Shown here piece after piece: positions 4,817 to 64,000 of a stretch of 64,000 bases of DNA (its first letter is position 1; each line of letters opens with the position of its first letter). The position numbers and the translations under genes were made by a program. Origin of the DNA: Parcubacteria group bacterium Athens0714_16 (GTDB lineage: Bacteria; Patescibacteriota; Minisyncoccia; Phycocordibacterales; 21-14-all-36-13); NCBI GenBank assembly GCA_007376805.1, contig VMGX01000002.1:47116-111115 (forward strand), given 5' to 3'. The notes under the pieces are model-generated. The model saw only the letters and a program-made list of their open reading frames with translations, had not been told where the DNA came from and made no database searches.

Positions 4817-4872
4817 ATTCTGTCTTGAGATGCGTATCTCAACTGATGAGTCCAAAAGGACGAAACAAAAAA
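4817..4872 (+). ncRNA. hammerhead ribozyme, type III topology
   Basis: GUC(4822-4824) | stem I hairpin UUGAGAU-GCGU-AUCUCAA (4825-4842) | CUGAUGA (4843-4849) | stem II GUCC-AAAA-GGAC (4850-4861) | GAA (4862-4864) | ACA... pairing with UGU (4821-4823). All invariant core positions are present. Confidence 0.8.
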
Positions 4873-4927
4873 GTTTGTCAAACACCCGATGTTTGACAAC
4901 AGAAAAAATAAAAGTTCTTTAAAAAAT

Positions 4928-4979
4928 TTAGTTAGTTCTCTAAAATTACAAACGATTATAATTTTAGAGAACTAACTAA
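4928..4979 (+). other. perfect 20-bp inverted repeat (hairpin) immediately upstream of a small ORF
   Basis: TTAGTTAGTTCTCTAAAATT (4928-4947) and AATTTTAGAGAACTAACTAA (4960-4979), with a 12-nt loop. Confidence 0.7.
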
Positions 4980-4993
4980 TAAAGAGAGTTAAA

Positions 4994-13593: not shown

Positions 13594-15075
13594 CTATTTT
13601 ACACCATATTTACCTCTTAATATCTTCTTTTCTTTTTCTTCTTCTGCCCCCATTTTTTCTTTTCCCTTTTCTCCAAGCTCGCGAAGCGTTTGGTTATCAA
13701 ACTTTGATAGCTCCACAGTTCTTTTTTCAAGGTAATCCTTGGTATTTTTTTTGGGATCGCCCAAAACTTCTTCAAGAAGCGCGCTTAATATGTATCCTAT
13801 TTTAGGCCCCGGTGTTTCTTGTGTAACGTTCATTATTCCCGACCCGTCTATTTTAAGCATTTTTACTGAAATTGGGTCTCTTATCACTTCCTCGATCATT
13901 GATTTGTATTTTCTTAATCTATAAGGGTCTTCTTTTGGTCTACCCGTTCCTACGCGATCTGCGATCCTTATGTTCATTAGATCCCAAATGTTTTCTGGTC
14001 CCACATTACTTAACATTCTTCTAACCGCTGACAATGTTATTTGATCTGTGTCTGAAAAAAACATATGCCATCTTGTTAATAAAACAACTTTTTCTATTGT
14101 TTTTGTTGGGAATTTTAGGTTTTTTAGTATTTTTTCTGTAATTTGTGAACCAACAACCTCGTGTCCATGAAACGTCCAGTCCTGTTTTTCTTCAGACCAT
14201 CTTCTTGTTCTTGGTTTCCCTATATCATGAAAAAGTGCGGATAATCTTATTTCGAGGGACCATTTTTTGTTTGAAGTAACCTGAACTGCCCTTAAAGAGT
14301 GTTCCCAGACGTCGTATGAATGTGCCTGGTTTTGTTTTGTTCCCAAACCTTCCTCCAGTTCAGGAATTATATATTCTAAGATATTTAATCTGTTCATCAT
14401 TTCTATTCCGAACATTGGTCTATCTGACATGATAATTTTGATAAATTCATCACGAATTCTTTCTTTTGCTATCAAATCTATCTTTTGTGGCATCTTTTTT
14501 ATTGATTTCTCTGTTTCTGTGTTTATTATAAAACCAAGTTCTGAGGATAACCTTATTGCTCTTAGTATTCTTAAACCATCTTCATTAAATCTCTCATCTG
14601 CTTTCCCAACAGTTTTTATTATGCCATTGTTCAAATCTTTTATTCCCCCAAACAAATCTATCACTGTTTCATATAGAACATTGGTTGTTTCACGTGAAAC
14701 CTTTAATGCAAGTGCATTTATAGTAAAATCACGTCTTTTTAGATCATCTTCCAGTTTTTCACTAAAAACAACACTGTCCGGTCTTCTGCTATCGGAATAG
14801 TTTGCGTCTAGTCTGTATGTTGTGACTTCTACAACTTTTAGTTTCTCATTTTCTGTTTCGTCGTTAACAACACGAACCGTTCCAAAGTCGTTGTCATAAT
14901 GTGAATGTTCAAAAAGGGAAGTGATTTGGTCTGGTCTGGCGCTTGTTGTTATGTCCCAATCTTTCGGCTCTCTGTTCATAAAAATGTCCCTTACACAGCC
15001 ACCAACAAGATACGCCTCAAAACCAGCGCTTTCTAATTTTCCAGTTATTTGGGATATTTCTTTTGGTATTTGCAT
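13594..15075 (-). CDS. cca: CCA-adding enzyme / poly(A) polymerase family nucleotidyltransferase with HD domain
   Basis: N-terminal GGCVRD nucleotidyltransferase motif, central RLSALFHDIGKP HD motif, and a long C-terminal extension. Confidence 0.85.
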   Translation of the reverse strand: MQIPKEISQITGKLESAGFEAYLVGGCVRDIFMNREPKDWDITTSARPDQITSLFEHSHYDNDFGTVRVVNDETENEKLKVVEVTTYRLDANYSDSRRPDSVVFSEKLEDDLKRRDFTINALALKVSRETTNVLYETVIDLFGGIKDLNNGIIKTVGKADERFNEDGLRILRAIRLSSELGFIINTETEKSIKKMPQKIDLIAKERIRDEFIKIIMSDRPMFGIEMMNRLNILEYIIPELEEGLGTKQNQAHSYDVWEHSLRAVQVTSNKKWSLEIRLSALFHDIGKPRTRRWSEEKQDWTFHGHEVVGSQITEKILKNLKFPTKTIEKVVLLTRWHMFFSDTDQITLSAVRRMLSNVGPENIWDLMNIRIADRVGTGRPKEDPYRLRKYKSMIEEVIRDPISVKMLKIDGSGIMNVTQETPGPKIGYILSALLEEVLGDPKKNTKDYLEKRTVELSKFDNQTLRELGEKGKEKMGAEEEKEKKILRGKYGVK

Positions 15076-15665: not shown

Positions 15666-16352
15666 GTGATAGAAAATAGATTTAACTTAAACATGAAAGA
15701 TAAAAAAGACAGAGCATTTGAATTAAGAAAAAATGGCCATACGTATGCTTATATTAGTGAAATATTGGGCGTGCCAAAAAGTACGCTTTCAGATTGGTTT
15801 GCACACCACCCATGGTCTGAAGAAATTAGGAAAAAAAATTCTATAGTATCTGCAAAAAGAAACATTCAAAATCTTAATGAAAAAACAAAAAATAAATTAA
15901 AAGAAAAATATAAAAAAGCTGAAAAAGAGGCGGAAATGGAATTTAAAAAACATAAAAATAACCCACTTTTTGTTGCGGGTTTAATGTTATATATAGGAGA
16001 AGGAGACAAAAATATTGTTGACGGGATGATAAGAATAAGTAATTTTGACCCAAATGTACTTAAAATTTTTATGTTATTTTTGGACAAGTTTTTCTTTGTT
16101 AAAAAAGAAAAAGTTAAGTTTTGGATATTATTGTATCCAGATTTGAACGAAAAAACATGTAAAGTTTGGTGGAAAAACAAGTTACAAATAGGGGACAGAG
16201 ATTTTTATAAAAACCAGATTATAAAAGGAAAACATAAGAAAAAAAGGTTGCAATATGGCGTCGGAAATATTATTCTTAGTAATAAGTTTTTGAAGAAAAA
16301 GTTGTTAAGGTGGATTGATCTTATTTCAGAACATATTGCGGGTATGGTTTAG
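15666..16352 (+). CDS. HTH + LAGLIDADG-like homing-endonuclease-like protein
   Basis: 228 aa. N-terminal HTH-like segment (ISEILGVPKSTLSDW). Single LAGLIDADG-like motif LFVAGLMLYIGEGDK. Paralog of 22859-23545. The stop codon lies inside tRNA-Gly. The start may be ATG 15693. Confidence 0.55.
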   Translation: MIENRFNLNMKDKKDRAFELRKNGHTYAYISEILGVPKSTLSDWFAHHPWSEEIRKKNSIVSAKRNIQNLNEKTKNKLKEKYKKAEKEAEMEFKKHKNNPLFVAGLMLYIGEGDKNIVDGMIRISNFDPNVLKIFMLFLDKFFFVKKEKVKFWILLYPDLNEKTCKVWWKNKLQIGDRDFYKNQIIKGKHKKKRLQYGVGNIILSNKFLKKKLLRWIDLISEHIAGMV

Positions 16353-16408
16353 TGGTAGAACACGTGCTTGCCAAGCACGAGTCGGGAGTTCGATTCTCCC
16401 TACCCGCA
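16338..16408 (+). tRNA. tRNA-Gly (anticodon GCC)
   Basis: Acceptor GCGGGTA/TACCCGC, anticodon loop TTGCCAA, T-loop TTCGATT. 71 nt. Confidence 0.9.
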
Positions 16409-16544
16409 CAAAACAACGAAGTAATTTTGTGCATGGTAGAAAAAGCAAATTTATTTGCTTTTGTGGAGAATCGAAGGATTTTCTATGTTGAGCTCGAGTA
16501 TTACGAGAACGAAACAAGAAAATCACCAAGCTTTATGTAATAAG

Positions 16545-21081: not shown

Positions 21082-22272
21082 TTATTTCTCCAAAGCTGTT
21101 ATCAACAGATTTTTTAATACAGGAGCTTTTATTTCGTCAAACGATTTTGACGTTGCTAATAAATTGAATGATAAAAAATTTTTGATATCCAAACCGATTT
21201 CTTTTTCTAAATTTCTATTTATATGCGCGAGCGTTATTGCCCTTAGGTCCCGTTCCTGTGTTAATTTTGATTCCGTAGTAGTTACGATGAGTCCTATCAA
21301 TTTGTTTTGGTTATTCACCACCGCTCCACCAGAAGAACCTTTTTGTGCAAGCACGGAACCACCGAGAGAAATTAAATCAAGTGTTTTTTCTGAAAATGTA
21401 TAAAGTTTTTTTATTTGTTCTATTGTTGTTGCGATATTCAAATCTTTTTGTATAGTTATTCCACCTAAAAATCCGGCGGGATATCCTGCAAGTAAAACAT
21501 TTTCTCCAACTCCAACGGTGTTTTCTTCCGTGTCATAATCAACCCACGGAAACTCGTTAGGAAGTTTGTTTTCATTGTTTGTGGTTTCTGTAATCAAAAG
21601 GAACGCATAATCGCTTTCGCCATTTTCTGAATAATCTTTTTGTGTAATGTTTTGATAATTTTTTGTTATCCATTCTCCAGAAATATATAACGGCTCTGCT
21701 TTGTAAATTGATTGAGATGGACTGCCCATGCGAATTGAACACGTGACGAAGTCTTTTTTAATATAATCTCTCAAAAGAAAATATTGTGCTATGTGCGCAT
21801 TGGTTAAAATTACACCCTCTTTATTAATTATTATTCCACTTCCAGATATTGGGTTAAAAGATCCAGAACTTTCTGTTGTGCATAAAATATTTACGATTGC
21901 TCCACGTGTGGATTTATTTATTATGTCAAAGGAAACAGTTTCTTTGGTGGTGGGTTGTTGGTTGATTGGGGGAGTTATTTTTTCTGTCTGCTCTGTGGGT
22001 GTAGACACGGCGGGTAGGTCTGTAGGTGTCGGTGCGGTGGTTGATTCTTGTGTTGGCGTTTCTTTTATTATTTTTGGTTCGCTTGGTTTTAAATCCGTGA
22101 TTTTATTGATGGGAGTATTTTCCTGCGATTTCGCGATTTTTTTAAATGGTGTGTTTTCGTTCGGGTATGTTTGTGTTTCATTTTTTACGTCAGAAATAAT
22201 AATCATAAAAAGAAATATGATTAATAGTAGTGCGTAAATTTTGATAACATTTTCTATCTTTTCTTTGTTCAT
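21082..22272 (-). CDS. membrane-anchored trypsin-like (S1C) serine protease
   Basis: N-terminal TM, Pro/Thr-rich linker, TNAHI (His) and GSSGGAVV (Ser) catalytic motifs. No PDZ domain seen. Confidence 0.75.
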   Translation of the reverse strand: MNKEKIENVIKIYALLLIIFLFMIIISDVKNETQTYPNENTPFKKIAKSQENTPINKITDLKPSEPKIIKETPTQESTTAPTPTDLPAVSTPTEQTEKITPPINQQPTTKETVSFDIINKSTRGAIVNILCTTESSGSFNPISGSGIIINKEGVILTNAHIAQYFLLRDYIKKDFVTCSIRMGSPSQSIYKAEPLYISGEWITKNYQNITQKDYSENGESDYAFLLITETTNNENKLPNEFPWVDYDTEENTVGVGENVLLAGYPAGFLGGITIQKDLNIATTIEQIKKLYTFSEKTLDLISLGGSVLAQKGSSGGAVVNNQNKLIGLIVTTTESKLTQERDLRAITLAHINRNLEKEIGLDIKNFLSFNLLATSKSFDEIKAPVLKNLLITALEK

Positions 22273-22858: not shown

Positions 22859-23545
22859 ATGAAAAATTTAAGTGTAAAAAATCATGCAATAAAATTAAGA
22901 AAAAAAGGATTTTCTTACAGTTTTATAATTAACGAAACCGATGTATCTAAAAGCACATTAAGCTGTTGGTTATCTAAAATTCCATTCAAACCAAACAAAG
23001 AAACAGTAGAAAGAATTGGTAGAGGAAAATTAAAAACAGCAATGATAAAAACATCTCAAAAAATGCAGATGATTGAAAAAACAAAGAAAATTGCAAAAGA
23101 AGATATCACAAATATAAGCGAAAGAGATTTGTTTATGCTGGGTTTAGGATTATATATAGGGGAAGGTTCAAAAAGTGCAAATATTGTTAGGGTTATTAAT
23201 TCAGATCCTGATATAATAAAACTTGCGATAAAATGGTTTGAAAAAACTTGTGGGATAGACAAAAATAATTTTTCCATTACTATACATTTGTACCCAGATA
23301 ACGATATTGAAAAATGTCTAAATTATTGGTCTGGGGTCACGGGGATTAGGAGAAGTAACTTTAACAAAACATACATAGACACAAGGAAAGATAAGAAAGT
23401 ATTCAAGAAGGGTAAATTACCACACGGTACGGCACATCTTACGGTTATAAGTAATGGTAAAAAAGAGCTCGGTGTTTTTTTGTTTAGAAAGATAAACGCA
23501 TGGACGAATGAGGCCTTTAAAAAAATAAATAATAAGCGGGATTAG
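22859..23545 (+). CDS. HTH + LAGLIDADG-like homing-endonuclease-like protein (paralog)
   Basis: 228 aa. HTH-like NETDVSKSTLSCW. LAGLIDADG-like LFMLGLGLYIGEGSK. The stop codon TAG is within tRNA-Gly(UCC). Confidence 0.55.
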   Translation: MKNLSVKNHAIKLRKKGFSYSFIINETDVSKSTLSCWLSKIPFKPNKETVERIGRGKLKTAMIKTSQKMQMIEKTKKIAKEDITNISERDLFMLGLGLYIGEGSKSANIVRVINSDPDIIKLAIKWFEKTCGIDKNNFSITIHLYPDNDIEKCLNYWSGVTGIRRSNFNKTYIDTRKDKKVFKKGKLPHGTAHLTVISNGKKELGVFLFRKINAWTNEAFKKINNKRD

Positions 23546-23606
23546 TTTAGTGGTAAAACGTCTGCCTTCCAAGTAGAGGTCACCGGTTCGATTCCGGTAT
23601 CCCGCA
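23536..23606 (+). tRNA. tRNA-Gly (anticodon UCC)
   Basis: Acceptor GCGGGAT/ATCCCGC, anticodon loop CTTCCAA, T-loop TTCGATT. 71 nt. Confidence 0.9.
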
Positions 23607-23793
23607 CAAATTTTACTCACAATAAAAGAACTGCCACAGCAATTCTTTTATTGTGATTGTAAAACTTAGTGTCCAGCTCAAAATTTTTTTTGTTATTTTT
23701 GTCTGGAGTTTATTCATACTTTATTTATTATTCTTTGGTTAATTTAAATATCAACAAATTTGGGGCTGTGGCACCAAGAGTAAACTTTTCTAT

Positions 23794-46653: not shown

Positions 46654-48177
46654 ATGATTTATACTCAATTGAAAATTCATTCGGTTTTCTATGTTTTAAT
46701 AATAAGCTTTGTTTTAGGAGTGTTTTTCCGCTCCTTTTTTAATTTTGGTTTATTTTTTTTGTTGTTTTTAATTTTAATGTCCATTTTGGTTTCTTTGTTC
46801 TATATTTTGTTTTGCAAACAAAATATTAATATTCTTTTTGTTGCAATATTTATCTTGTTTTTTGGTTTTGGTGTATTTAGGTTTAGTTTATATGATGAAT
46901 ATAAGGGTAGTGAAATTACGGACTCATTAGTTGAGCAAAAAATTACAGCCGAAGGAATAATCACTGATGAACCAATAGAAAAAGAAAAAAGTATAAAATT
47001 TATAGTTAAATTAGACAAAGTTATTTCATTTGATGGAGAAACAAAAGTAAAAGACAGGGTTTTAATAATTACAGATCTTCCGTCTCTATTTAAATATGGT
47101 GACGAAGTTGTTTTAAGAGGCATTCTCATTAAACCAAAAAATTTTTCAAGTAACGATAGAGAATTTGATTATGTTTCCTATCTTTCTAAAGATAAAATAT
47201 TTTATCAAATGTTTCGTCCGGAAATAAAACTAAAATCAGAAGGTGGGGGTAATTATATAAAAGAAGTTTTATTTAGTGTAAAAAATTCTTTTTTAAAAAG
47301 TATTAAAAAAATAATTCCTGAACCACACGCATCTTTACTCGGTGGTTTGACAGTTGGTGCTCAGGAATCTTTGGGAGAGGAATTACAAAATAATTTTAGA
47401 AAAACAGGGATTGCGCACATAGTTGTTTTGTCTGGTTATAACGTGACAATTGTTTCCGAAGCCATAATGCGTGTTTTCGGTTTTCTCCCGATGGTTTTTA
47501 AATTTTCTTTAGGTGCCTTAGCAATAATATTTTTTGTTTTGATGACCGGAGCTTCTGCAACGGCCGTTAGAGCTGGGATAATGGCCGTTCTGGTTATTAT
47601 TGCTCGTGTTACGGGAAGAGAATACGATGCGCTTCGCGCACTTTTAATCGCTGGTGTTGTTATGATAATACAAAATCCTAAGATTTTGGCATTTGATTCT
47701 TCTTTCCAACTTTCTTTTATGGCGACCCTAGGACTATTGTATGTTTCACCACGAATTTACAAATATTTTAAATTTATAACTACAAAATTTCAATTTCGTG
47801 AGCTTGTTGTTTCGGCGATAGCGACACAGCTTTTTGTTTTGCCCCTGATTTTATATAAAATGGGGAACCTTTCCATTTTGGCTCTACCTGTAAATTTACT
47901 TATTCTCCCATTTATTCCGATAACGATGTTTTTCGGTTTTGTTTCTGGGGTTATTGGCTTTTTGGGTTCAGCAATAGCTTTTCCATTTTCTTTTATAACA
48001 TTTCTATTTTTAGATTATGAGTTAAAGATAGTGAATTTTTTTGCAAACATACCTTTTTCTTCGATCCAAATAAACAATTTTCCGGTAGTTTTTATGGTTT
48101 TAATATATATAATTTATGGAGTGATTTTATTTTTAATTAATAAAAATAAGAAAAATGTTCCAAAAATAAATTTATGA
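46654..48177 (+). CDS. comEC: ComEC/Rec2 competence channel protein (N-terminal and Competence-domain part only)
   Basis: 507 aa, polytopic. OB-like region followed by the ComEC-type TM core (GIAHIVVLSGYNVTIV). No metallo-beta-lactamase domain in this ORF. Confidence 0.8.
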   Translation: MIYTQLKIHSVFYVLIISFVLGVFFRSFFNFGLFFLLFLILMSILVSLFYILFCKQNINILFVAIFILFFGFGVFRFSLYDEYKGSEITDSLVEQKITAEGIITDEPIEKEKSIKFIVKLDKVISFDGETKVKDRVLIITDLPSLFKYGDEVVLRGILIKPKNFSSNDREFDYVSYLSKDKIFYQMFRPEIKLKSEGGGNYIKEVLFSVKNSFLKSIKKIIPEPHASLLGGLTVGAQESLGEELQNNFRKTGIAHIVVLSGYNVTIVSEAIMRVFGFLPMVFKFSLGALAIIFFVLMTGASATAVRAGIMAVLVIIARVTGREYDALRALLIAGVVMIIQNPKILAFDSSFQLSFMATLGLLYVSPRIYKYFKFITTKFQFRELVVSAIATQLFVLPLILYKMGNLSILALPVNLLILPFIPITMFFGFVSGVIGFLGSAIAFPFSFITFLFLDYELKIVNFFANIPFSSIQINNFPVVFMVLIYIIYGVILFLINKNKKNVPKINL

Positions 48178-51858: not shown

Positions 51859-52755
51859 ATGCGTGATTACCCATTAGAAAAAGTTAGAAACATAGGAATT
51901 ATTGCACACATAGACGCGGGGAAAACAACAGTTTCCGAGCGCGTTCTTTTTTATACAGGAGTTTCTCACAAAATAGGTGAAGTCCACGAAGGAAAGGCGG
52001 TTATGGATTGGATGGAACAGGAAAGAGAAAGAGGAATTACCATTACATCCGCTGCAACGACTTGTTTTTGGACTCCAACATATCAAACAATGCAGATAAA
52101 CGCAGATAAAAAATCGCAGATTGACGCAGATGAAACAAAAAAAGAATTTGAACACAGAATAAATATTATAGATACACCAGGACACGTGGACTTTACAGTT
52201 GAGGTTGAGAGATCTCTGAAGGTTCTTGACGGTGGTGTTGTTGTTTTTGACGGAGTCGCAGGAGTTGAACCACAGTCAGAAACAGTTTGGAGACAGGCAG
52301 ATAAATATCATGTTCCAAGAATTTGTTTTATAAACAAACTCGATAGAACAGGAGGAAATTTTGAAAGGTCATACAAAACAATTTTAGATAGATTAACAAA
52401 AAATGCAGTTAGAATGCAGATACCGATCGGTGAAGAAGAAAAACACATGGGAGTTGTTGATCTTTTGAAAATGAAAGCATTTTATTTTGAAGGAGATTTA
52501 GGGAGCACAATAAGAGAAGCTGAAATCCCAGACGAATTAAAGGCTGATGCACAGAAATACAGAAATGAACTTGTAGAAAAAATTGTTGAGAACGACGAAG
52601 AAATGATGACCAAATATCTTGGCGGTGAAGAGATTGGAGTTGATATTTTGAAAAAACTTTTAAGAAAATCAGTAATTGCTGGGTTGGTTGTTCCTGTTTT
52701 TACTGGTTCCGCATTAAAAAATAAAGGAGTTCAACTTGGATGTTCCGCCAATTAA
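51859..52755 (+). CDS. fusA: elongation factor G, N-terminal (G domain) ORF
   Basis: [14 protein letters not shown] and NKLD GTPase motifs. Ends ...[14 protein letters not shown] after a frame break. Contains a 27-aa insertion before [11 protein letters not shown]. Confidence 0.85.
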
Positions 52756-54007
52756 AGGAATAGACCCAAACACTGACGGAGAAATAGAAAGAAAATCAGA
52801 TGATAACGAGCCGTTTGCTGCGCTTGCTTTTAAATTACAAACGGACCCATTCGTTGGTCAGTTAACATATTTTAGAGTTTATTCAGGAACACTTGAATCT
52901 GGTTCTTATGTGTACAATTCTACAACAGGAGAAAAAGAAAGAATCGGAAGAATTTTAAGAATGCATGCAAACCTAAGAGAAGATGTAAAAAAAGTTTATG
53001 CAGGAGAAATTGCAGCAGCTGTTGGTCTTAAAAACACAAGAACATCAGATACTCTTTGTGACGAAGTCCATCCAATAATTCTTGAAAGAATTGTGTTCCC
53101 AGAACCGGTTGTATCTTTGAGAATTGAACCAAAAACAAAAGCAGACCAAGAAAAAATGGGTATTGCACTTAAAAAACTTTCTGACGAAGATCCAACATTC
53201 AGAATTAAATCAGATCAAGAAACACTGGAGACAATTATTTCTGGTATGGGAGAATTACACCTCGATATTATTGTGGACAGAATGAAAAGAGAATTTAATG
53301 TTGAAGCAAATATAGGCAAACCACAGGTTGCATACAGAGAAACAATAACAGGCGAGGCAGAAGCAGAATATAAATACATAAGACAAACAGGTGGTCGCGG
53401 ACAATACGGTCACGTAAAAATTAGAGTCAAACCAATGCCGTTAGAAGAAGAAAAAAATAAAAAACTTGCAAGAAATATAAAGAGGTCTGAGGGACTTGAA
53501 TTTATAAATAATATTAAAGGGGGCGTTATTCCACAAGAATATATTCCAGCAGTTGAAAAAGGGGTTCGTGAAGCGATGGACAGAGGTATTCAGGCTGGTT
53601 ATAAAATTGTAAATGTGTCAGTGGATTTGTTTGACGGTTCATTCCACGACGTTGACTCTTCTGAAATTGCATTCAAAATTGCAGCATCACAAGCATTTCA
53701 AGATGCAACAAAAAGAGCAAAACCAGTTATTCTTGAGCCTGTTATGAAATTAGAAGTTGTTACACCAGATAAATTTATGGGAGACATAACAGGAAATCTT
53801 GCTTCAAAGAGAGGACAAATTGAAGGCTCTGAAGAAAGAATTGGTTTGAAAGTAATTCATGCGAAAGTTCCTCTTTCAGAAATGTTTGGATATACGACAT
53901 CATTACGTTCAATGACAGAAGGCCGTGCATCTTCAACAATGGAATTTGATCATTATGCGATTGTACCGGAGAATGTTGCTAAAGAAATTATAGAAGCGAG
54001 AAAGTAG
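52736..54007 (+). CDS. fusA: elongation factor G, domains II-V ORF
   Basis: (L)DVPPIKG...PFAALAFK...ISGMGELHL...[11 protein letters not shown]. In the +1 frame relative to the upstream ORF. TTG at 52736 lies 6 nt after AAGGAG. Confidence 0.85.
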
Positions 54008-56487: not shown

Positions 56488-57296
56488 CTAACCTTGTGTT
56501 AAGAAATATGAACGAATACAAAAAATCACTAAAAAAGCGGAGGTAATAATCTTGTTTTTGAAGGATTATCGCCCGCTTATTAAAGCGGTTTTTTTATTAA
56601 AGAAATTGGCGGAATGACTGGACGAATGAACATTGAAAAATGAATATTAGTTAAGTTTAAAAGCAGAATCCAAGTGTCTTTTTCGTGGCACTGGATTTTA
56701 AAGTATTTTTCATCTAGCGGAATAGAAATATTCCATAGAAAATAAGTTTTATTAAGTCCCGCGTGATTTAATAAAAAAATTGTGGTTTATGTAGTTCCTA
56801 ACAGGAAATACATAAGGGCGTATGGTGGATGCCTTGACTCTAAGAGGCGATGAAGGACGTGGCATGGCTGCGATAAACTTCGGGGAGGTGCCTAGCAACC
56901 TTTGATCCGAAGGTTTCCGAATGGGGTAACCCATTGTGACAAACTCACAATACTGAATTTATTCAGTGCATACCTGGGGAAGTAAAACATTTCAGTACCC
57001 AGAGGAAAATAGAACAATAGTTATTCCCTTAGTAGCGGCGAGCGAAAAGGGAAAAGCCCAAACCGAACTCTTTTATTAGGGCTCGGGGTTGTAGGACGTT
57101 AATATCATATTTATATGAAAGAAGTTACAAATGTGTTAGATAGTTGAACAAGCTGGAAAGCTTGGCCCCAGAGGGTGATAGCCCCTTAAACGAAATTTTA
57201 CACACTTCTTTGTTAATGTTCCTGAGTATCTCAAGACACGAATGGCTTGAGAGAATCTGCCGGAACTAACCGGTAAGGCTAAATACTCTTAGAGAT

Positions 57297-57339
<43 letters not shown>

Positions 57340-58679
57340 GGAGAGGGGAGTGAAATAGACCTGAAACCATATGTCTACAAGGAGTCGGAGCAGAACTCTA
57401 CTGAGTTCTTTAAATATGTTTTTTAAAATTTATAATTTATGGATTTTAAAATTAGAGAATTGAGTAGAGTTTCTGCGACGGCGTGCCTATTGAAGAATGA
57501 GCCAACGAGTTTACATGTACTGCTTGACTAAGTCCCGAAAGGACGGAGTCTAAGGGAAACCGAGTGTTAAAAGCGCGTTCCGCTTTATTGCGGGTGTAGT
57601 ATATGTAAGACCCGAAGCCAGGTGAGCTACCCATGATCAGGGTGAACTTTGTCGAAAGACAAAGGGAGGCCCGAACCGTTTAGCCGTGCAAAACTATCGG
57701 ATGAATTGTGGGTAGGAGTGAAAAGCTAATCGAACTTGGTAATAGCTGGTTCTCTCCGAAATAGCTTTAGGGCTAGCGTTTAGTTTATCTTTTGGGGGTA
57801 GAGCACTGGATGGTCTGGATAGGAGGCAACTTCACTAGACCAATCAAACTCCGAATACCAGAAGCCACTACTAAACAGTCAGACTACGGGGGCTAAGCTC
57901 CGTCGGTCAAAAGGGAAACAGCCCAGATCTCAAGTTAAGGTCCCTAAATTTACATTAAGTGCAAATAAGGAGGTGGAATTTCTCCGACAGCGAGGAGGTT
58001 GGCTTAGAAGCAGCCATCCTTTAAAGAAAGCGTAACAGCTCACTCGTTAAGAGATTTTGCGCCACAAATAATCGGGGCTAAATGTGATACCGAAACTGAG
58101 GATGTCATCACTTTATTGTGATGGCGTGGTAGGAGAGCATTCCGTTCTACTGTGAAGCCAAAGGGGTGACCCATGGTGGAGTGTACGGAAGAGATAATGT
58201 TGGCACGAGTAACCACAATTCCACTAAGAAAGTGGAACGCCGAAAGATCAAGGTTTCCTTGGCAATGTAAATCATCCAAGGGTTAGTCGGTCCTAAGGTT
58301 ATGACGAAAGTCGGAGCCGATGGACACACGGTTAATATTCCGTGACTTTCATTTATTTCGATGGGGTGACGAAGTTTAGTATGTTTGGCGCATTATTGGA
58401 TTTGCGTCTACTTTGTGAGGAAGGTGCTTAGGCAAATCCGGGCACCTGACTTTAATGTCAATTCCAAGCGAGGCGGAGAACCTGAGATTCGTCAAAGGGA
58501 ATCAAACAAAGCAAGCTTCCAAGAAAAACCTCTAAGGTTAAATAAATGAAAACCGTACCGAAAACCGACACAGGTGATCAGGTCGAGAAGACTAAGGCGA
58601 ATGAGTGAGTGTTCCCCAAGGAACTCGGCAAAAAAGCAGCCGTAACTTTGGAATAAGGCTTTCCAGCTCCAATTTTGGG

Positions 58680-58950
58680 AGTAAAATTAAATTATGAATT
58701 ATGTTTATCTTATTCAAAATGATTTTGATGGAGAAATATATATTGGACAAACTTCTGATATAAAAAGAAGGTTGGCTGAACATAATAATAAATGTCAAAA
58801 AGTTTACCACTAAAAAACGGTAAGTGGATAATTATTTATCTTGAAATATTCAGAAATAAAAAAGATGCACAAGAAAGAGAAAATAAATTAAAACAACATG
58901 GTGGTGGTAAAAAAGAATTACTTAAGCGACTAAGATATAGTTTGCTTGAG
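58680..58950 (+). other. 271-nt insertion in the terminal loop of a helix-63-equivalent hairpin
   Basis: Closed by the 17-bp helix CCAGCTCCAATTTTGGG (58663-58679) with CCCAAAATTGGAGCTGG (58951-58967). Lacks the AUAUAGUC group I signature. Confidence 0.6.
58694..58935 (+). pseudogene. frameshifted GIY-YIG nuclease gene inside the 23S insertion
   Basis: Frame 1 reads MNYVYLIQNDFDGEIYIGQTSDIKRRLAEHNNK (GIY-YIG N-half, stop at 58813). The C-half KWIIIYLEIFRNKKDAQERENKLKQ continues in another frame from about 58792, with no stop until 59028 in rRNA sequence. The shift lies near an A-run. Confidence 0.65.
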
Positions 58951-59124
58951 CCCAAAATTGGAGCTGGACGCAGCGAAAGTACCCCTGGCGACTGTTTACC
59001 AAAAACACAGCTCCCTGCGAACTCGTAAGAGGATGTATAGGGGGTGACGCCTGACCAATGCCAGAAGGTTAAACATGAGGGGTCCAAGAAGTTTTACTTT
59101 TTGGGCTGGATTATGTAAGCCCTG

Positions 59125-59159
<35 letters not shown>

Positions 59160-59611
59160 TCTCGGTTTAATTTTTAAATTGAATCGAGAAAGACTAGGAC
59201 TGTTATAATAAAAAATTGGTAACAAAAGATTGCTGCCTATTTCACGTAAAGTGAAATGTCTATAAAATTTGACCATATGCTGGGAAACCCGCGATGTATC
59301 CTTAAGTACTCGTTTAATTTTTTAAACAGTAACAAACTTTAAGGTGATGCGGAAAATCAGCAGGAAAGTTTGAATTCTTTTTAATTAAATCTAGAATTCA
59401 AAATCCTCAGAGACTAAAAGTCAGACTAAGTTGTCTACAAAAACAATTTAGAAAATATAGTCCGAACTTTGTGGCGACACAGAGAGTGAGACAGAAATGT
59501 TCTTACCTTGTATCTGCGTTCATCTGCGCCTGCCCCGTAGCTAGAGCATAGCTCTATGGTACTGGGGTATAATTTGCGTAGATCTGCGTTTGTTACAAAG
59601 TAACAAAGTTG
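59160..59611 (+). mobile_element. group I intron (ORF-less) at the E. coli 1917-equivalent position
   Basis: Interrupts CCTAAGGT|...G|AGCGTAATTCC. The 5' exon ends in U and the intron ends in G. Contains AGACTAAAAGTC and GAAAATATAGTCC core-like motifs. Confidence 0.75.
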
Positions 59612-60105
59612 AGCGTAATTCCTTGTGTGGTAAGTTCACACGTGCACGAATGGCGTAACGACTGGGGGACTGTCTCGGGGAACAGCTCGGTGAAAATACA
59701 GTATCGGTGAAGATGCCGATTACCTGCAACGGGACGAAAAGACCCCGGGAGCTTTACTGCAACTTCGTATTGAATATACGTTTCATCTGCGTAGCATAGA
59801 TGGGAGACTTTGAAGTTTGTTTTTCGGAACAGATGGAGTCAACAGTGAAATACCATTCTTATGTGATGTATATTCTAACCTCAACGGCAAAAACGGTGAG
59901 GGACATTGCGTGGTGGGCAGTTTTAGTGGGGCGCTATCCTCCTAAAGAGTAACGGAGGAGTTTATCAAGGTCAGCTAGGCGCGAATGGAAACCGTGCCGA
60001 TAGTGTAATGGCACAAGCTGGCTTAACTGCGAGACGGACATGTCGAGCAGATGCGAAAGCAGAACATAATGAACCGACGATTCGAATTAGACACGGTCGG
60101 AGATT

Positions 60106-60138
<33 letters not shown>

Positions 60139-60181
60139 GGTTCCGCCTAAGCGTTCAGAGCGACGGCGGAGTTCGGCACCT

Positions 60182-60503
60182 TAAAGTAAATTTACAAATT
60201 TAAATCGGGGTGCGACGTGAGAGATTGCGTAGCCTGGAATCAAAAACATATTTGTAGGAGAATATGTTCAGATTAAAAATATTGGCTTATAACGGTGGAC
60301 TCCATCATAAAAATTTTTATTATGGACAATACCGTGGGAAGTCTTCGTTTTCAAAAACGAATGACCCCGTAGAGACTGATGCGAAAGCAGAGAGTATTTC
60401 ATAAACGAAATGCTAATACGCCAACTCCTAACCACAATAAATTAATTGTGGAAGGAAGAAGATATAGTCCGATCCTTCTGGTAACAGAAGAAAAATGACA
60501 TTG
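60182..60503 (+). mobile_element. group I intron (ORF-less) at the E. coli ~2500-equivalent position
   Basis: Interrupts GGCACCT|...G|CGATGTCGG. Contains GAAGATATAGTCC. Shares blocks with the next intron. Confidence 0.75.
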
Positions 60504-60659
60504 CGATGTCGGCTCGACTTATCCTGGGACTGGAGAAGGCCCCAAGGGTTTGGCTGTTCGCCAATTAAAAAGTCACGTGAGCTGGGTTCAGACCGTCGTG
60601 AGACAGGTTGGTCTCCTATCTGTTGCAGGCGTCGATTTTTGAGGAGATTTGCTTCTAGT

Positions 60660-61486
60660 AAGTAATTGCTACTTCTCATAGTAATATGGGATGACAATTT
60701 GGCTAATAACGGTGAAATCTTCATAGGTTATCTGGCAGTGGAAAAACAATTAGCGCGGTCCGTTAATTGTGATAAAATTACTTGAGGACCAGATAATTTT
60801 TAAGACAATACCGTGGGAAGTCGATCTAAAATTAATTTAGCATATATCGCTGGTTTTCTTGATGGAGATGGAAGTTTAATGCTCCAAATAAAGAAAAGAA
60901 GTGATAACAAAAGAGGGATTCGTTTTATGGCGACAATATGTTTCTATCAAGATAGTCGTCACGATGAACCTTTATATTGGATAAGAAAAGAATTAAACAT
61001 AGGGTATGTTTCAAAAAGAAAAGATGGAATTACTGAATTGAGGATCAATGGATTTGAGAGAATTGAAGAAATTCTTAAAAATCTTATTCCTTATATAAAA
61101 TTCAAAAAGATACAAGCAAAAGCATTATATGATTGTTGTAAAATTTTACAAAAACCAATGAATGCTTTAAAAGAAAGTGATTTCAGAAAACTTGTAGATT
61201 TGATTCTTACAATTCAAAAAGAAAACTATGTTTCAAAGAAAAAGAAAGACAAAGAAGAATTGCTAAAACTATTAGATTTGACCCCGTAACGACTTGTTTT
61301 GTTCAATCTAATTTGAACAAACGGACTTGTATAATTTCGGAAGGTTCTGAAATATTTTAGGACAGATTTATACTTGTAATACGCCGACACCCTAATCAAC
61401 ACAAGGTTGGTGGGTGAAGATATAGTCTACACTCCTAGAAATAGGGGATAAATTCTAAATCAATTAAAAAGATTAAGAAATATGTG
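60660..61486 (+). mobile_element. group I intron with LAGLIDADG ORF in the sarcin-ricin loop region
   Basis: Interrupts CTAGT|...G|ACGAGAGGACC. Contains GAAGATATAGTCT. The ORF is inserted between the blocks CAATACCGTGGGAAGTC and TGACCCCGTA. Confidence 0.75.
60813..61289 (+). CDS. single-motif LAGLIDADG homing endonuclease (I-CreI-like)
   Basis: 158 aa. LAYIAGFLDGDGSLMLQIKKR motif and overall I-CreI-like layout. GTG start within a conserved intron block. Confidence 0.85.
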   Translation: MGSRSKINLAYIAGFLDGDGSLMLQIKKRSDNKRGIRFMATICFYQDSRHDEPLYWIRKELNIGYVSKRKDGITELRINGFERIEEILKNLIPYIKFKKIQAKALYDCCKILQKPMNALKESDFRKLVDLILTIQKENYVSKKKKDKEELLKLLDLTP

Positions 61487-61565
61487 ACGAGAGGACCGAA
61501 GTGAACTGACCTCTGGTGTACCTGCTGTCGTGCCAACGGCACCGCAGGGTAGCTATGTCGGGAAA

Positions 61566-61598
<33 letters not shown>

Positions 61599-61874
61599 AA
61601 CTCCAAGATAAGAAATCATTTAAGATTCCTGAGAGATGATCAGGTTGATAGGCCTTAGGTGTAAGCACAGCAATGTGTTCAGCCGAGAGGTACTAATTTA
61701 ATCAAAATTACTTCCTGTTGGGAGCTATGTGAGCTACAATATTTTATTTTTGTGGATTCTTTATTCCGCTAGGTGAAAAATACTTTATCTGTTTTTATAT
61801 ACTTAACTATTATTTTTTTTCTGAACTAAATTTTTTGAATTTAGTGCTTTTTTGTTCTTTTTAAATATTTAATT

Positions 61875-61983
61875 GGCGGTATAGTTTAATCTGCTCTGGG
61901 CAGACTGACCAGTGGTTTTTGGTTAGGGTTAAAACGTCGCCCTTTTAAGGCGAAGAGTATTGGTTCGAGTCCGATTATCGTCA
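61875..61983 (+). tRNA. tRNA-Lys (anticodon UUU) with a 36-nt D-loop insertion
   Basis: Acceptor GGCGGTA/TATCGTC, D-stem GTTT/AAAC, anticodon arm TCGCC-CTTTTAA-GGCGA, T-arm ATTGG-TTCGAGT-CCGAT. The insert at 61891-61926 lies between AAT and GGTTA of the D-loop. Confidence 0.6.
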
Positions 61984-61989
61984 CAAAAG

Positions 61990-62064
61990 GCGGGGGTAGT
62001 TCAGTTGGTTAGAACATTCGTTTCGCAAAACGAAAGGTCGGTGGTTCGAGTCCACCCCTCTGCT
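61990..62064 (+). tRNA. tRNA-Ala-like (G3:U70; CGC-containing 8-nt anticodon loop)
   Basis: Acceptor GCGGGGG/CCTCTGC with G3:U70, D-arm GTTC-AGTTGGTTA-GAAC, anticodon stem TTCGT/ACGAA enclosing TTCGCAAA (8 nt), variable AGGTC, T-arm GGTGG-TTCGAGT-CCACC. Confidence 0.6.
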
Positions 62065-62205
62065 CGAAGTTTTTTTTGAGTTCTTTTATATGGGCCGTTG
62101 AATTAACAGACCGAGGTCTTTAGTGACTGGCGTAACAGCGCGGGCTCAACGGAACGGGAGAGCTTGGTTGGGGTAATCGGTAAATCACCCACGGTCTATC
62201 ATTTT

Positions 62206-62679
62206 TTAGATAAGTTTTTTGTTTGCTCGCACAGTTTGTGCGAGCTTTTTGTTTGTTTTTTCAAAACTCTCGATGTTTCCTTTAATAATTTTAAAAAGTG
62301 GATGTATTTTTATCTTTTCAATCTTTTTTAATTCAGAATATTTTATTTTGTCTCTATTTTTTAGTTTATTTTTTAAATGTTTAAATTCATATTCTAACTG
62401 TCCACTTGTTACATTAATACAAATTTTTTTGTAATTTTTTTCAATTTTATTTTTATCAAATTTATATTTTCTTTCAGATGCTTCTTTTTCGATGTGATGG
62501 AGATATGTATTTATTGAATTCAACGAATTTTTTGTATTTTTAAAACGCAAAAGCTGTGGATGATTTTTATAACCCACAGTTTTTCCTTCAAGAACTTTTT
62601 TTGCAAGAAGGCCTTCTCGCCAAACAGCTAAAAGTCCCATCCGGTCTAAATATTTTGGATGTATACTCCATAAACGCAT
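62206..62679 (-). CDS. pyrimidine dimer DNA glycosylase (T4 endonuclease V / DenV-like family)
   Basis: MRLWSIHPKYLDRMGLLAVWREGLLAKKVLEGKTVGYKNHPQLLRF is the family signature. Start set at MRLW; the ORF is open to 62733. Confidence 0.75.
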   Translation of the reverse strand: MRLWSIHPKYLDRMGLLAVWREGLLAKKVLEGKTVGYKNHPQLLRFKNTKNSLNSINTYLHHIEKEASERKYKFDKNKIEKNYKKICINVTSGQLEYEFKHLKNKLKNRDKIKYSELKKIEKIKIHPLFKIIKGNIESFEKTNKKLAQTVRANKKLI

Positions 62680-62842
62680 ATTAGATAATTGATGAAATTT
62701 GAATTCCGATTTGATGCGGTGTGTATTAAACAAAGTTCGAATGTATTTTGCTGATAATCCTGATGCCGACTAATCGCACGCGCGGAGCGCGTGGTGGCTC
62801 TAAACCTCTCTGTACGCTCGTATCGTTCCGCCACCTGCCTGA

Positions 62843-63442
62843 ATACTTGAAAGTCCTTTTTACTACGGGGTATTTGAAAAACCAATAGGAAGCGGAAATT
62901 GGTATCAAGGAAAACATATACCGTTGATAACGCAGGAATTATTTGAAAAAGTAAAAACACAATTAAAGAGAGATAATATAGTTCGCCAATCAAAAGAATT
63001 TACTTTCACAAAACTAATGACCTGTGGACTTTGTGGTTCAGGGATATCTGCCGAAGAAAAATATAAGCAACTCAAAGACGGGACAACAGCTACATATAGA
63101 TATTATGGATGTAGTAGAGCAAAGGATAGATATTGTAAAAACCAATACCTACAAGAGAAAGATTTAACCGATCAGTTTATTAAATTAATAGATTCTGTAG
63201 ATTTAAATGAAGCGGGAGTAAAAATAAAATTTGAAGAGGAGTTAAGGAGATATAATAAATTTAATCTTGGAGTTTTGGGAGTTCAAAAGAAAAAAACAAA
63301 ACATGAAGATATTGATTTAAAAACATATGTGAAATATATTCTCCGAGATGGTACAAGTCAGGAGAAAAGAGAATTGATGGGATGTTTTAAATCAAAGATT
63401 AAAATTACGAAGAAAGTAGTGACGATCTCAGAATGTCGGTAA
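62843..63442 (+). pseudogene. 5'-truncated large serine recombinase (recombinase and zinc-ribbon domains only)
   Basis: Open frame ...FYYGVFEKPIGSGNWYQGKHIPLITQELFEKV then CGLCGSGISAEEKY...YRYYGCS zinc-ribbon and coiled coil. The N-terminal resolvase catalytic domain is absent, and an upstream in-frame TGA lies at 62840. Confidence 0.65.
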
Positions 63443-63937: not shown

Positions 63938-64000
63938 AATTAAGTTATCTTGCCAACTTTTTCTATGAATTATAGATTCGTTTTCATCTTGAAGTTCATA

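Follow-up and report, generated by a model that had tools for sequence, protein, structure and literature searches.

A tRNA gene with an eight-nucleotide anticodon loop in a variable slot behind the 23S rRNA gene of a Parcubacteria genus

We analyzed a stretch of 64,000 nucleotides (nt) from Parcubacteria group bacterium Athens0714_16 (contig VMGX01000002.1, forward-strand positions 47,116 to 111,115; hereafter the window, with a G+C content of ~33%), which carries behind its 23S ribosomal RNA (rRNA) gene a transfer RNA gene, here called tRNA X (61990..62065, + strand), whose anticodon loop has eight nucleotides. An original prediction, made from the letters of this DNA, had taken X for an alanine-identity tRNA because of a G3:U70 pair in its acceptor stem and had likened its loop to those of +1 frameshift-suppressor tRNAs. 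Comparison with close relatives suggests another reading, to which we give about an even chance: in one genus of Parcubacteria the 23S transcription unit would carry a distal tRNA slot that is dispensable and whose occupants are swapped rapidly, like cassettes, and X would be one of the slot's alleles.

X is recognized as a 76-nt cloverleaf by ARAGORN, by Rfam, by its minimum free energy (MFE) fold, which is a cloverleaf overall, and by covariation among relatives. ARAGORN reports five tRNAs in the window, four of them canonical and the fifth, X, labeled 'tRNA-???' with the four-base anticodon 'cgca' (in verbose mode, tRNA-?(Ala|Cys)(cgca)). The Rfam tRNA family RF00005 matches 61990-62064 with 58.8 bits (E=4e-12 in a local search; gathering score 29), with a single base of the anticodon loop aligned as an insertion. 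Read from the sequence, the acceptor stem GCGGGGG (61990-61996)/CCTCTGC (62057-62063) includes the wobble pairs G3 (61992):U70 (62061) and G5:U68; TA separates it from the D arm GTTC-AGTTGGTTA-GAAC, which is followed by A, the anticodon stem TTCGT (62017-62021)/ACGAA (62030-62034) around the loop TTCGCAAA in DNA letters (62022-62029, 8 nt), the variable loop AGGTC, and the T arm GGTGG-TTCGAGT-CCACC. The stems count 7/4/5/5 base pairs (bp), all 21 of them intact, and U8, A14, G18G19, the T-loop GTTCRA, and C61 are present. On these grounds the original description of a real tRNA with an eight-nucleotide anticodon loop and a G3:U70 pair is upheld. The gene ends with the discriminator T 62064 (U73) and C 62065 (C74) and does not encode CCA; all four canonical window tRNAs likewise stop at a C after the discriminator and lack CCA (ARAGORN), and each of them has A73 where X has U73. 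An open reading frame (ORF) at 13594-15075, which we take by eye from its translation to be CCA-adding-enzyme-like, may encode the corresponding enzyme.

Relatives whose elongation factor G (EF-G) is 94-98% identical keep the gene order RecJ-RNaseH-ComEC-...-rpsL-rpsG-fusA-small ORFs-23S with LAGLIDADG introns, and the slot behind their 23S differs in loop sequence, loop length, and discriminator. The slot of the window holds X (8-nt loop with CGCA; G:U at 3:70; U73) in second position, 5 nt downstream of a tRNA-Lys(UUU)-like gene in first position (61875..61984, + strand). Four assemblies from Hainich groundwater (L158, L166, L167, and L168; EF-G 98%) have one tRNA, 100% identical across all four, with loop CUAACGA (AAC), A:U at 3:70, and A73; its anticodon AAC (A34), seen at 5141-5215 of L166, is unusual for bacteria. 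L155 (JGI; EF-G 96%) has two, the first (21220-21292) with a 6-nt loop UAUCGC and the second (21298-21373) with loop CUGCUAG (GCU), A:U at 3:70, and U73. The latter lacks a long variable arm and, being of class I with U73, is not a bacterial tRNA-Ser despite its GCU. L177 (EF-G 94%) has a canonical Val loop, CUUACAA (UAC), with A•C at 3:70 and C73. Finally, L162, L163, L164, and L179 (EF-G 95%) have no tRNA in the slot, only terminator hairpins, and this empty state in one close lineage suggests that the slot is dispensable. All four second-position alleles end in the discriminator followed by C-GAA, and the 3′ flank of the L177 allele, CGAATTTTTTGAGTTCTTTT, matches the CGAAGTTTTTTTTGAGTTCTTTT of the window.

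The slot is also where the irregular tRNAs are found. Among its six tRNAs one has an 8-nt loop (X), one a 6-nt loop (the first of L155), and one a D-loop insertion (the first of the window, lacking in its L155 counterpart); none of these features occurs in the four tRNAs elsewhere in the window. The 8-nt loop of X is present in no relative, nor in JGI metagenome or IMG/VR contigs matching a body-plus-loop pattern. That metagenome pattern, an Asp-type body with a YTCGCA loop of 7-9 nt, returned 27 matches, of which none was an ortholog of X: they were normal tRNA-Ala(CGC) genes (e.g., L131, L136, and L147) and eukaryote tRNAs resembling short interspersed nuclear elements (SINE-like).

Across alleles the cloverleaf is retained as its letters change. 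In an alignment of the four second-position alleles (A2; window, L166, L155, and L177), 98.8% of pair cells are standard pairs, and changes on both sides were found in 12/21 pairs, including 4/5 of the anticodon stem, beneath four different anticodon loops. In a shuffle control, 0/500 replicates reached the observed values, and slid partners pair in 41-58%. The tertiary nucleotides U8, A14, G18G19, the GTTC start of the T-loop, and C56 are invariant in the same alignment, and the first-position tRNA shows compensatory stem changes, too, between the window and L155. These results bear on the possibility that X is a decaying, functionless copy of a once-normal distal tRNA, probably Val-like, with the 8-nt loop as a lesion. 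Complete loss of the slot in one lineage would fit such decay, as would the accumulated lesions at the locus (6-nt and 8-nt loops, D-loop insertion, and the A3•C70 mismatch of L177). However, neutral drift to 25-35% divergence would have disrupted the stems of a pseudogene, whereas those of X are whole, the alleles compensate one another in 12 pairs, and their tertiary nucleotides do not vary; we therefore consider decay rather improbable.

If X is a slot allele, selection would keep a tRNA fold and not a given codon reading. The fold could be the substrate of RNase P, RNase Z, and CCA addition and in that way mark off and shield the 23S precursor on its 3′ side; alternatively, it might be used as a generic tRNA body. 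Consensus scans are consistent with a single transcription unit, since they predicted neither a sigma-70-like promoter nor a terminator between the 23S and the tRNAs and so leave the slot contiguous with the 23S. The first terminator-like hairpin after the unit (GCTCGCACAGTTTGTGCGAGC plus a T-run, found by scan) lies at 62225..62245 (+ strand), and a homologous terminator hairpin follows the tRNA in L166. X appears, from these signals, to be co-transcribed with the 23S rRNA.

The alleles are far more divergent than their surroundings. Among these genomes the 23S 3′ exon (242 nt) is 93.0-99.2% identical, as opposed to 65-75% for the tRNA alleles, and between the window and L166 both the left spacer and the right terminator hairpin are conserved, which leaves little but the tRNA cassette as the divergent part. 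Divergence confined between conserved flanks might mean that the loop is under diversifying selection or cassette exchange, whether as decoy or target of an anticodon nuclease or toxin or as cargo of the right-hand island, and the genes to the right do vary from relative to relative, a recombinase fragment, Fic, SNase, AAA_14, and a methylase being among them. Yet the slot has no nuclease, toxin, or integrase as a constant neighbor, and alleles differ over the entire tRNA instead of the loop alone. Two pattern scans of viral contigs found no X-like tRNA, BLAST of X against phages and plasmids gave generic tRNA similarity of ~80%, and we found no att-like repeat in the window; no agent that swaps the cassette was identified among these candidates. 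We thus regard a role in such a conflict, or as island cargo, as very improbable, though not the least probable of the readings. The related idea of an integration site, in which the 3′ half of the tRNA is copied as an att repeat, was dropped because the window has no second copy; past position 64000 the visible sequence reaches ~64544, in L001.

The loop UUCGCAAA (62022-62029) has 8 nt instead of the usual 7 and contains CGC, GCA, and the quadruplet CGCA. Its geometry is 2+4+2 (U32 U33/CGCA/A A), with the extra base adjoining the anticodon as in +1 suppressor tRNAs. The length of eight is probably genuine. Over 61584-62210 (627 nt) the window matches a Logan assembly of SRR8863440 (L002) with 100% identity, also in the AAAA run, which lies at 62027-62030 and not, as first reported, at 62003-62006; this rules out an assembler artifact but not a read-level error, because L002 probably derives from the same reads. 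The trivial alternative raised with the original prediction was that one A of this run is a read or consensus error and that the true loop is the 7-nt UUCGCAA with anticodon CGC. A lesion in fusA (below) does show that this metagenome-assembled genome (MAG) has flaws. Four-base homopolymers, however, are not error-prone on Illumina, a second assembler yields the same letters over the whole 627 nt, and removing the A would leave U73, C2:G71, and a non-Ala body, as well as the other anticodons of the relatives. Moreover, independent data sets show 6-nt loops at this locus, and also 7-nt loops that carry other anticodons, and we consider a sequencing error the least probable of all the explanations weighed here. 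Orthologs had been proposed as a check for a plain tRNA-Ala(CGC): the relatives do have 7-nt loops, but their anticodons are AAC, GCU, and UAC and not the CGC of alanine.

Structure prediction suggests that this loop closes on itself. In both the MFE and centroid structures from RNAfold, U32 and U33 pair with the last two A's, producing a 7-bp stem capped by a CGCA tetraloop. The MFE structure of the second L155 tRNA has a 7-bp anticodon stem with a GCU triloop, and complete loop closure is possible in 2/4 second-position alleles (X and L155). As a slot allele, X would have acquired the anticodon arm UUCGU-UUCGCAAA-ACGAA, predicted to zip up in this manner, and the closed hairpin predicted by the model would probably make X a poor decoder or a non-decoder.

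The amino-acid identity of X, as far as its sequence tells, is ambiguous, and the alanine identity originally assigned to it is not supported. G3:U70 (G61992:T62061) is the sole Ala feature; in place of the A73 of tRNA-Ala and the G2-C71 of its G1-C72/G2-C71 context, X has U73 and C2:G71. Its D arm, variable loop, and T loop match Asp/His/Val-type tRNAs of many phyla, and a search of genome contigs with the D-arm/T-arm pattern GTTCAGTTGGTTAGAAC...AGGTCNNNGGTTCGAGTCC matched at least 120 ordinary tRNA-Asp/His/Val genes. Metagenome tRNA-Ala(CGC) genes differ from this body in their GGGG start, A73, GCTCAG...AGAGC D arm, and 7-nt UUCGCAA loop. U73 is a Cys-type discriminator and is found in X (T62064), but the GCA of X is out of register for an anticodon at 34-36 in a 7-nt loop, pushed along by an additional C behind U33, and in real tRNA-Cys genes the acceptor starts with GGCG and the D arm is GCCAAG...AAGGC, which the body of X does not resemble. 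The loop itself can be described as the Ala(CGC) loop UUCGCAA plus A and equally as the Cys(GCA) loop UUGCAAA plus C.

Nor is G3:U70 conserved. Position 3:70 is A:U in two of the four alleles (L166 and L155), A•C in one (L177), and G:U in the window only, from which we conclude that G:U is a lineage-specific state of a fast-evolving stem and not a conserved determinant. On the slot reading the pair would be a transitional A:U -> G:U change that incidentally makes X a possible, sub-optimal substrate of alanyl-tRNA synthetase (AlaRS). AlaRS does not read the anticodon, and some charging of X via G3:U70 could occur. The anticodon independence of AlaRS is also stated in PMC9094753.

Several observations sit uneasily with the slot reading. 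A pure processing signal would need neither the compensatory changes in 4/5 anticodon-stem pairs nor the canonical 7-nt Y32-U33-NNN-R37 loop seen in 4/6 slot tRNAs, and some alleles (UAC and AAC) may be real Val decoders. Redundancy of the slot with canonical tRNA-Ala, -Cys, and -Val is inferred from the relatives' empty slot only. Allele similarity does not track host similarity, the closest allele to X being that of the most distant host, L177, and the allele comparison rests on n=4. Relaxed constraint alone is insufficient to account for tRNAs at 65-75% beside an exon at 93-99%, so that cassette replacement or diversifying selection has to be invoked.

The main rival in our ranking is that X decodes triplets despite its 8-nt loop, accepting Ala (through G3:U70) or Cys (through U73 and GCA) and reading GCG or UGC/UGU in frame; the slot would then hold accessory tRNAs whose specificity is remoulded lineage by lineage. 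Selection on the whole cloverleaf including the anticodon stem agrees with this, as do U33, the purines after the anticodon, the canonical 7-nt loops of other alleles, and a gene end like that of functional tRNAs, and there is precedent for an 8-nt-loop tRNA that arose by one-base insertion and reads triplets (PMC3113583). Against it stand the predicted closure of the loop into a tetraloop hairpin, the absence of an 8-nt loop from every relative and from the JGI metagenome and IMG/VR pattern matches, the conflict between G3:U70 on one side and U73 with C2:G71 on the other, and a slot dispensable in a relative with 95% EF-G identity. We judge triplet decoding unlikely, with roughly one chance in five.

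Very much less probable is that X is a dedicated +1 suppressor or quadruplet tRNA, charged with Ala, in which CGCA reads UGCG or CGC+1 reads GCG-N. The 2+4+2 loop geometry, G3:U70, and the blindness of AlaRS to the anticodon would all suit such a tRNA. We give the same very slight credence to the wider version in which the 23S unit encodes a tRNA that accepts Ala or Cys, has CGCA as a genuine four-base anticodon, and serves programmed +1 decoding at UGCG/GCG-N. No gene in the 64 kb needs suppression. The one candidate, fusA (EF-G; 51859..54007, + strand), is split by a lesion at 52730-52740 and was first described as nearby and as needing a +1 shift, yet without a direct link to the tRNA. The lack of a link holds; the other two statements do not, as fusA lies ~8-10 kb upstream of X, not adjacent to it, the lesion is not a +1 site, and alignment to five relatives shows that the window is without 38 nt (GTTTTGGACGGCGTTGTAGATTATTTGCCGTCTCCTTT in L158) between two TTTGGA direct repeats. 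This deletion at CTT/GGA removes the conserved VLDGVVDYLPSPL (13 residues) and shifts the frame, and comparison with solved EF-G structures shows this 13-residue gap, too; EF-G of the relatives has 713 amino acids (aa). A +1 shift would not repair a 38-nt deletion, and the broken fusA either is an assembly or population artifact or means that an essential gene has truly become a pseudogene. The ORF lists of the window (64 kb only, and not a systematic test) show no other evident split genes.

Codon usage points the same way. In 47 likely window genes GCG makes up 161/14,379 codons (11.2 per 1000; 20% of Ala codons), and there are 5 in-frame instances of UGC-G. With GCG at about one codon in 90 and X apparently co-transcribed with the 23S, an efficient GCG/+1 shifter would be harmful; in E. 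coli, growth halted when an Ala quadruplet tRNA was induced, a severe toxicity (PMC9094753). The relatives share neither G3:U70 nor the loop with X, and the hairpin is predicted closed. The likeness to frameshift suppressors drawn in the original prediction is thus not supported at the level of function.

The 23S gene to which the slot is attached (56802..61720, + strand; ~4.9 kb) was delimited with Rfam and, for its 3′ exon, by alignment to relatives. It contains at least three group I introns (59214-59484, 60242-60491, and 61270-61448, + strand; Rfam), with a LAGLIDADG ORF in the last listed (60813-61289, + strand; Pfam LAGLIDADG_1). Rfam ends its large-subunit rRNA match at 60656, an intron-related artifact; the true 3′ exon, by alignment, is ~61460-61720. 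There is no 16S gene upstream of the 23S, where fusA and two small ORFs are found instead. The first-position tRNA has a normal 7-nt loop, CUUUUAA, the acceptor GGCGGTA/TATCGTC, and intact acceptor, anticodon, and T arms, while its D-loop carries an insertion of ~36 nt forming two small hairpins; it was missed by ARAGORN, and its Rfam match is limited to 61920-61975 (37.4 bits). An Rfam match to YrlA (Y RNA-like) across both window tRNAs (19.8 bits, E=0.18) was discarded as a chance joining of two tRNA halves. The 23S-tRNA spacer of L177 (11580-11800) holds ~4 tandem units of ~52 nt with the hairpin ATGCTCC(G/A)G(G/T)GGAGCAT, which L166 has in single copy.

Downstream of X, a GC-rich insert of ~110 nt (62090..62200, + strand) has a multibranch fold (z=-2.65) and is absent in relatives, being present only in contigs of the same organism (L001/L002); it may or may not be part of the 23S-tRNA unit. 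It belongs to no Rfam family and has no phage or plasmid match, and the idea that it is a diverged 5S rRNA was abandoned, with no Rfam match even at E<=10. No 5S rRNA gene was detected in the 64-kb window or beside the 23S of close relatives (L151, L155, L158, L162, L177, and L179). A distant Parcubacterium, L181, has an ordinary 5S (4870-4987) directly after its 23S and no tRNA; in the genus studied here, the usual 5S position is a variable tRNA slot or empty. Replacement of the ribosomal 5S by a tRNA, as in mammalian mitoribosomes, was rejected, one lineage being without both a 5S gene and a tRNA at this place.

Gene content to the right of the slot (62206-63442 of the window, and beyond) is different in every relative: Pyr_excise and a serine-recombinase Zn-ribbon fragment in the window, SNase, Fic, and AAA_14 in L162, a LexA-methylase fusion in L166, a ferric reductase in L155, and a VTT-domain protein with a tRNA-Ser in L177. 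Such variety suggests that the end of the 23S unit is a hot-spot for recombination or islands. The Pyr_excise protein of the window is 100% identical to one recorded for Athens0714_16; its gene is patchily distributed, and its sole close homolog lies on a 1-kb contig that stops short of the tRNA. Elsewhere in the window, two paralogous 228-aa proteins (15666-16352 and 22859-23545, both + strand; 31% identity) share an N-terminal helix-turn-helix and an LYIGEG motif, and their ORFs each end within the first bases of a tRNA-Gly (16338-16409 and 23536-23607). They may be free-standing homing-endonuclease-like genes, their LYIGEG being reminiscent of LAGLIDADG enzymes.

Taken together, a slot welded to an intron-rich 23S keeps the cloverleaf while its anticodon, loop size (6, 7, or 8 nt), discriminator, and 3:70 pair vary between hosts with 94-98% identical EF-G. 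If confirmed in more genomes, this would represent either a bacterial tRNA-shaped RNA kept for a non-decoding role or unusually fast identity remoulding or cassette exchange. A frameshift suppressor here would be remarkable, although the evidence points elsewhere; were quadruplet reading true, the hypervariable slot would be a natural test-bed of anticodon-loop remoulding across 6-, 7-, and 8-nt forms. X also illustrates that one transition is enough to give a non-Ala tRNA the G3:U70 determinant of alanine, which bears on the origin of mistranslating tRNAs. For annotation, a 'tRNA-???' beside rRNA in MAGs of the candidate phyla radiation (CPR) calls for ortholog comparison before recoding is claimed.

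Known tRNAs with enlarged loops resemble X in part. The sufD tRNA-Gly, the sufA6/SufB2 tRNA-Pro, and engineered quadruplet tRNAs share with X one extra loop nucleotide by the anticodon (8-nt-loop frameshift-suppressor and quadruplet tRNAs: 10.1101/2020.12.31.424971; PMC9094753). Classical suppressors, though, are mutants of otherwise canonical tRNAs, obtained by selection against one particular frameshift mutation, whereas X has no matching frameshifted target in the window, a mixed identity, a self-complementary loop, and no conservation. Another partial likeness is the yeast mitochondrial tRNA-Thr1(UAG), derived from tRNA-His, which like X is a natural gene with an 8-nt loop produced by a loop insertion together with an identity change; its loop is conserved in a clade of ~10 species and tied to a codon reassignment and to the loss of the competing tRNA (PMC3113583). 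The loop of X, in contrast, is found in one genome only. In Ashbya mitochondria, a tRNA-Ala(UAG) is reportedly a derivative of a tRNA of this Thr1-type with an 8-nt loop. Canonical tRNA-Ala(CGC), with loop UUCGCAA, and tRNA-Cys(GCA), with UUGCAAA or CUGCAAA, are each one inserted base away from the X loop, but X has the body of neither.

The slot as a whole is most comparable to tRNA shapes placed directly 3′ of rRNA with the fold kept, namely the distal tRNAs of bacterial rRNA operons, mitochondrial 'tRNA punctuation', and the t-elements of plant mitochondria. As in distal tRNA units, neither promoter nor terminator is predicted between rRNA and tRNA. Ordinary distal tRNAs, however, are canonical and conserved decoders, whereas this slot varies in anticodon, discriminator, and loop size and can be empty. 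In t-elements the anticodon is irrelevant, as we propose here, but unlike t-elements the slot tRNAs maintain the anticodon stem as well.

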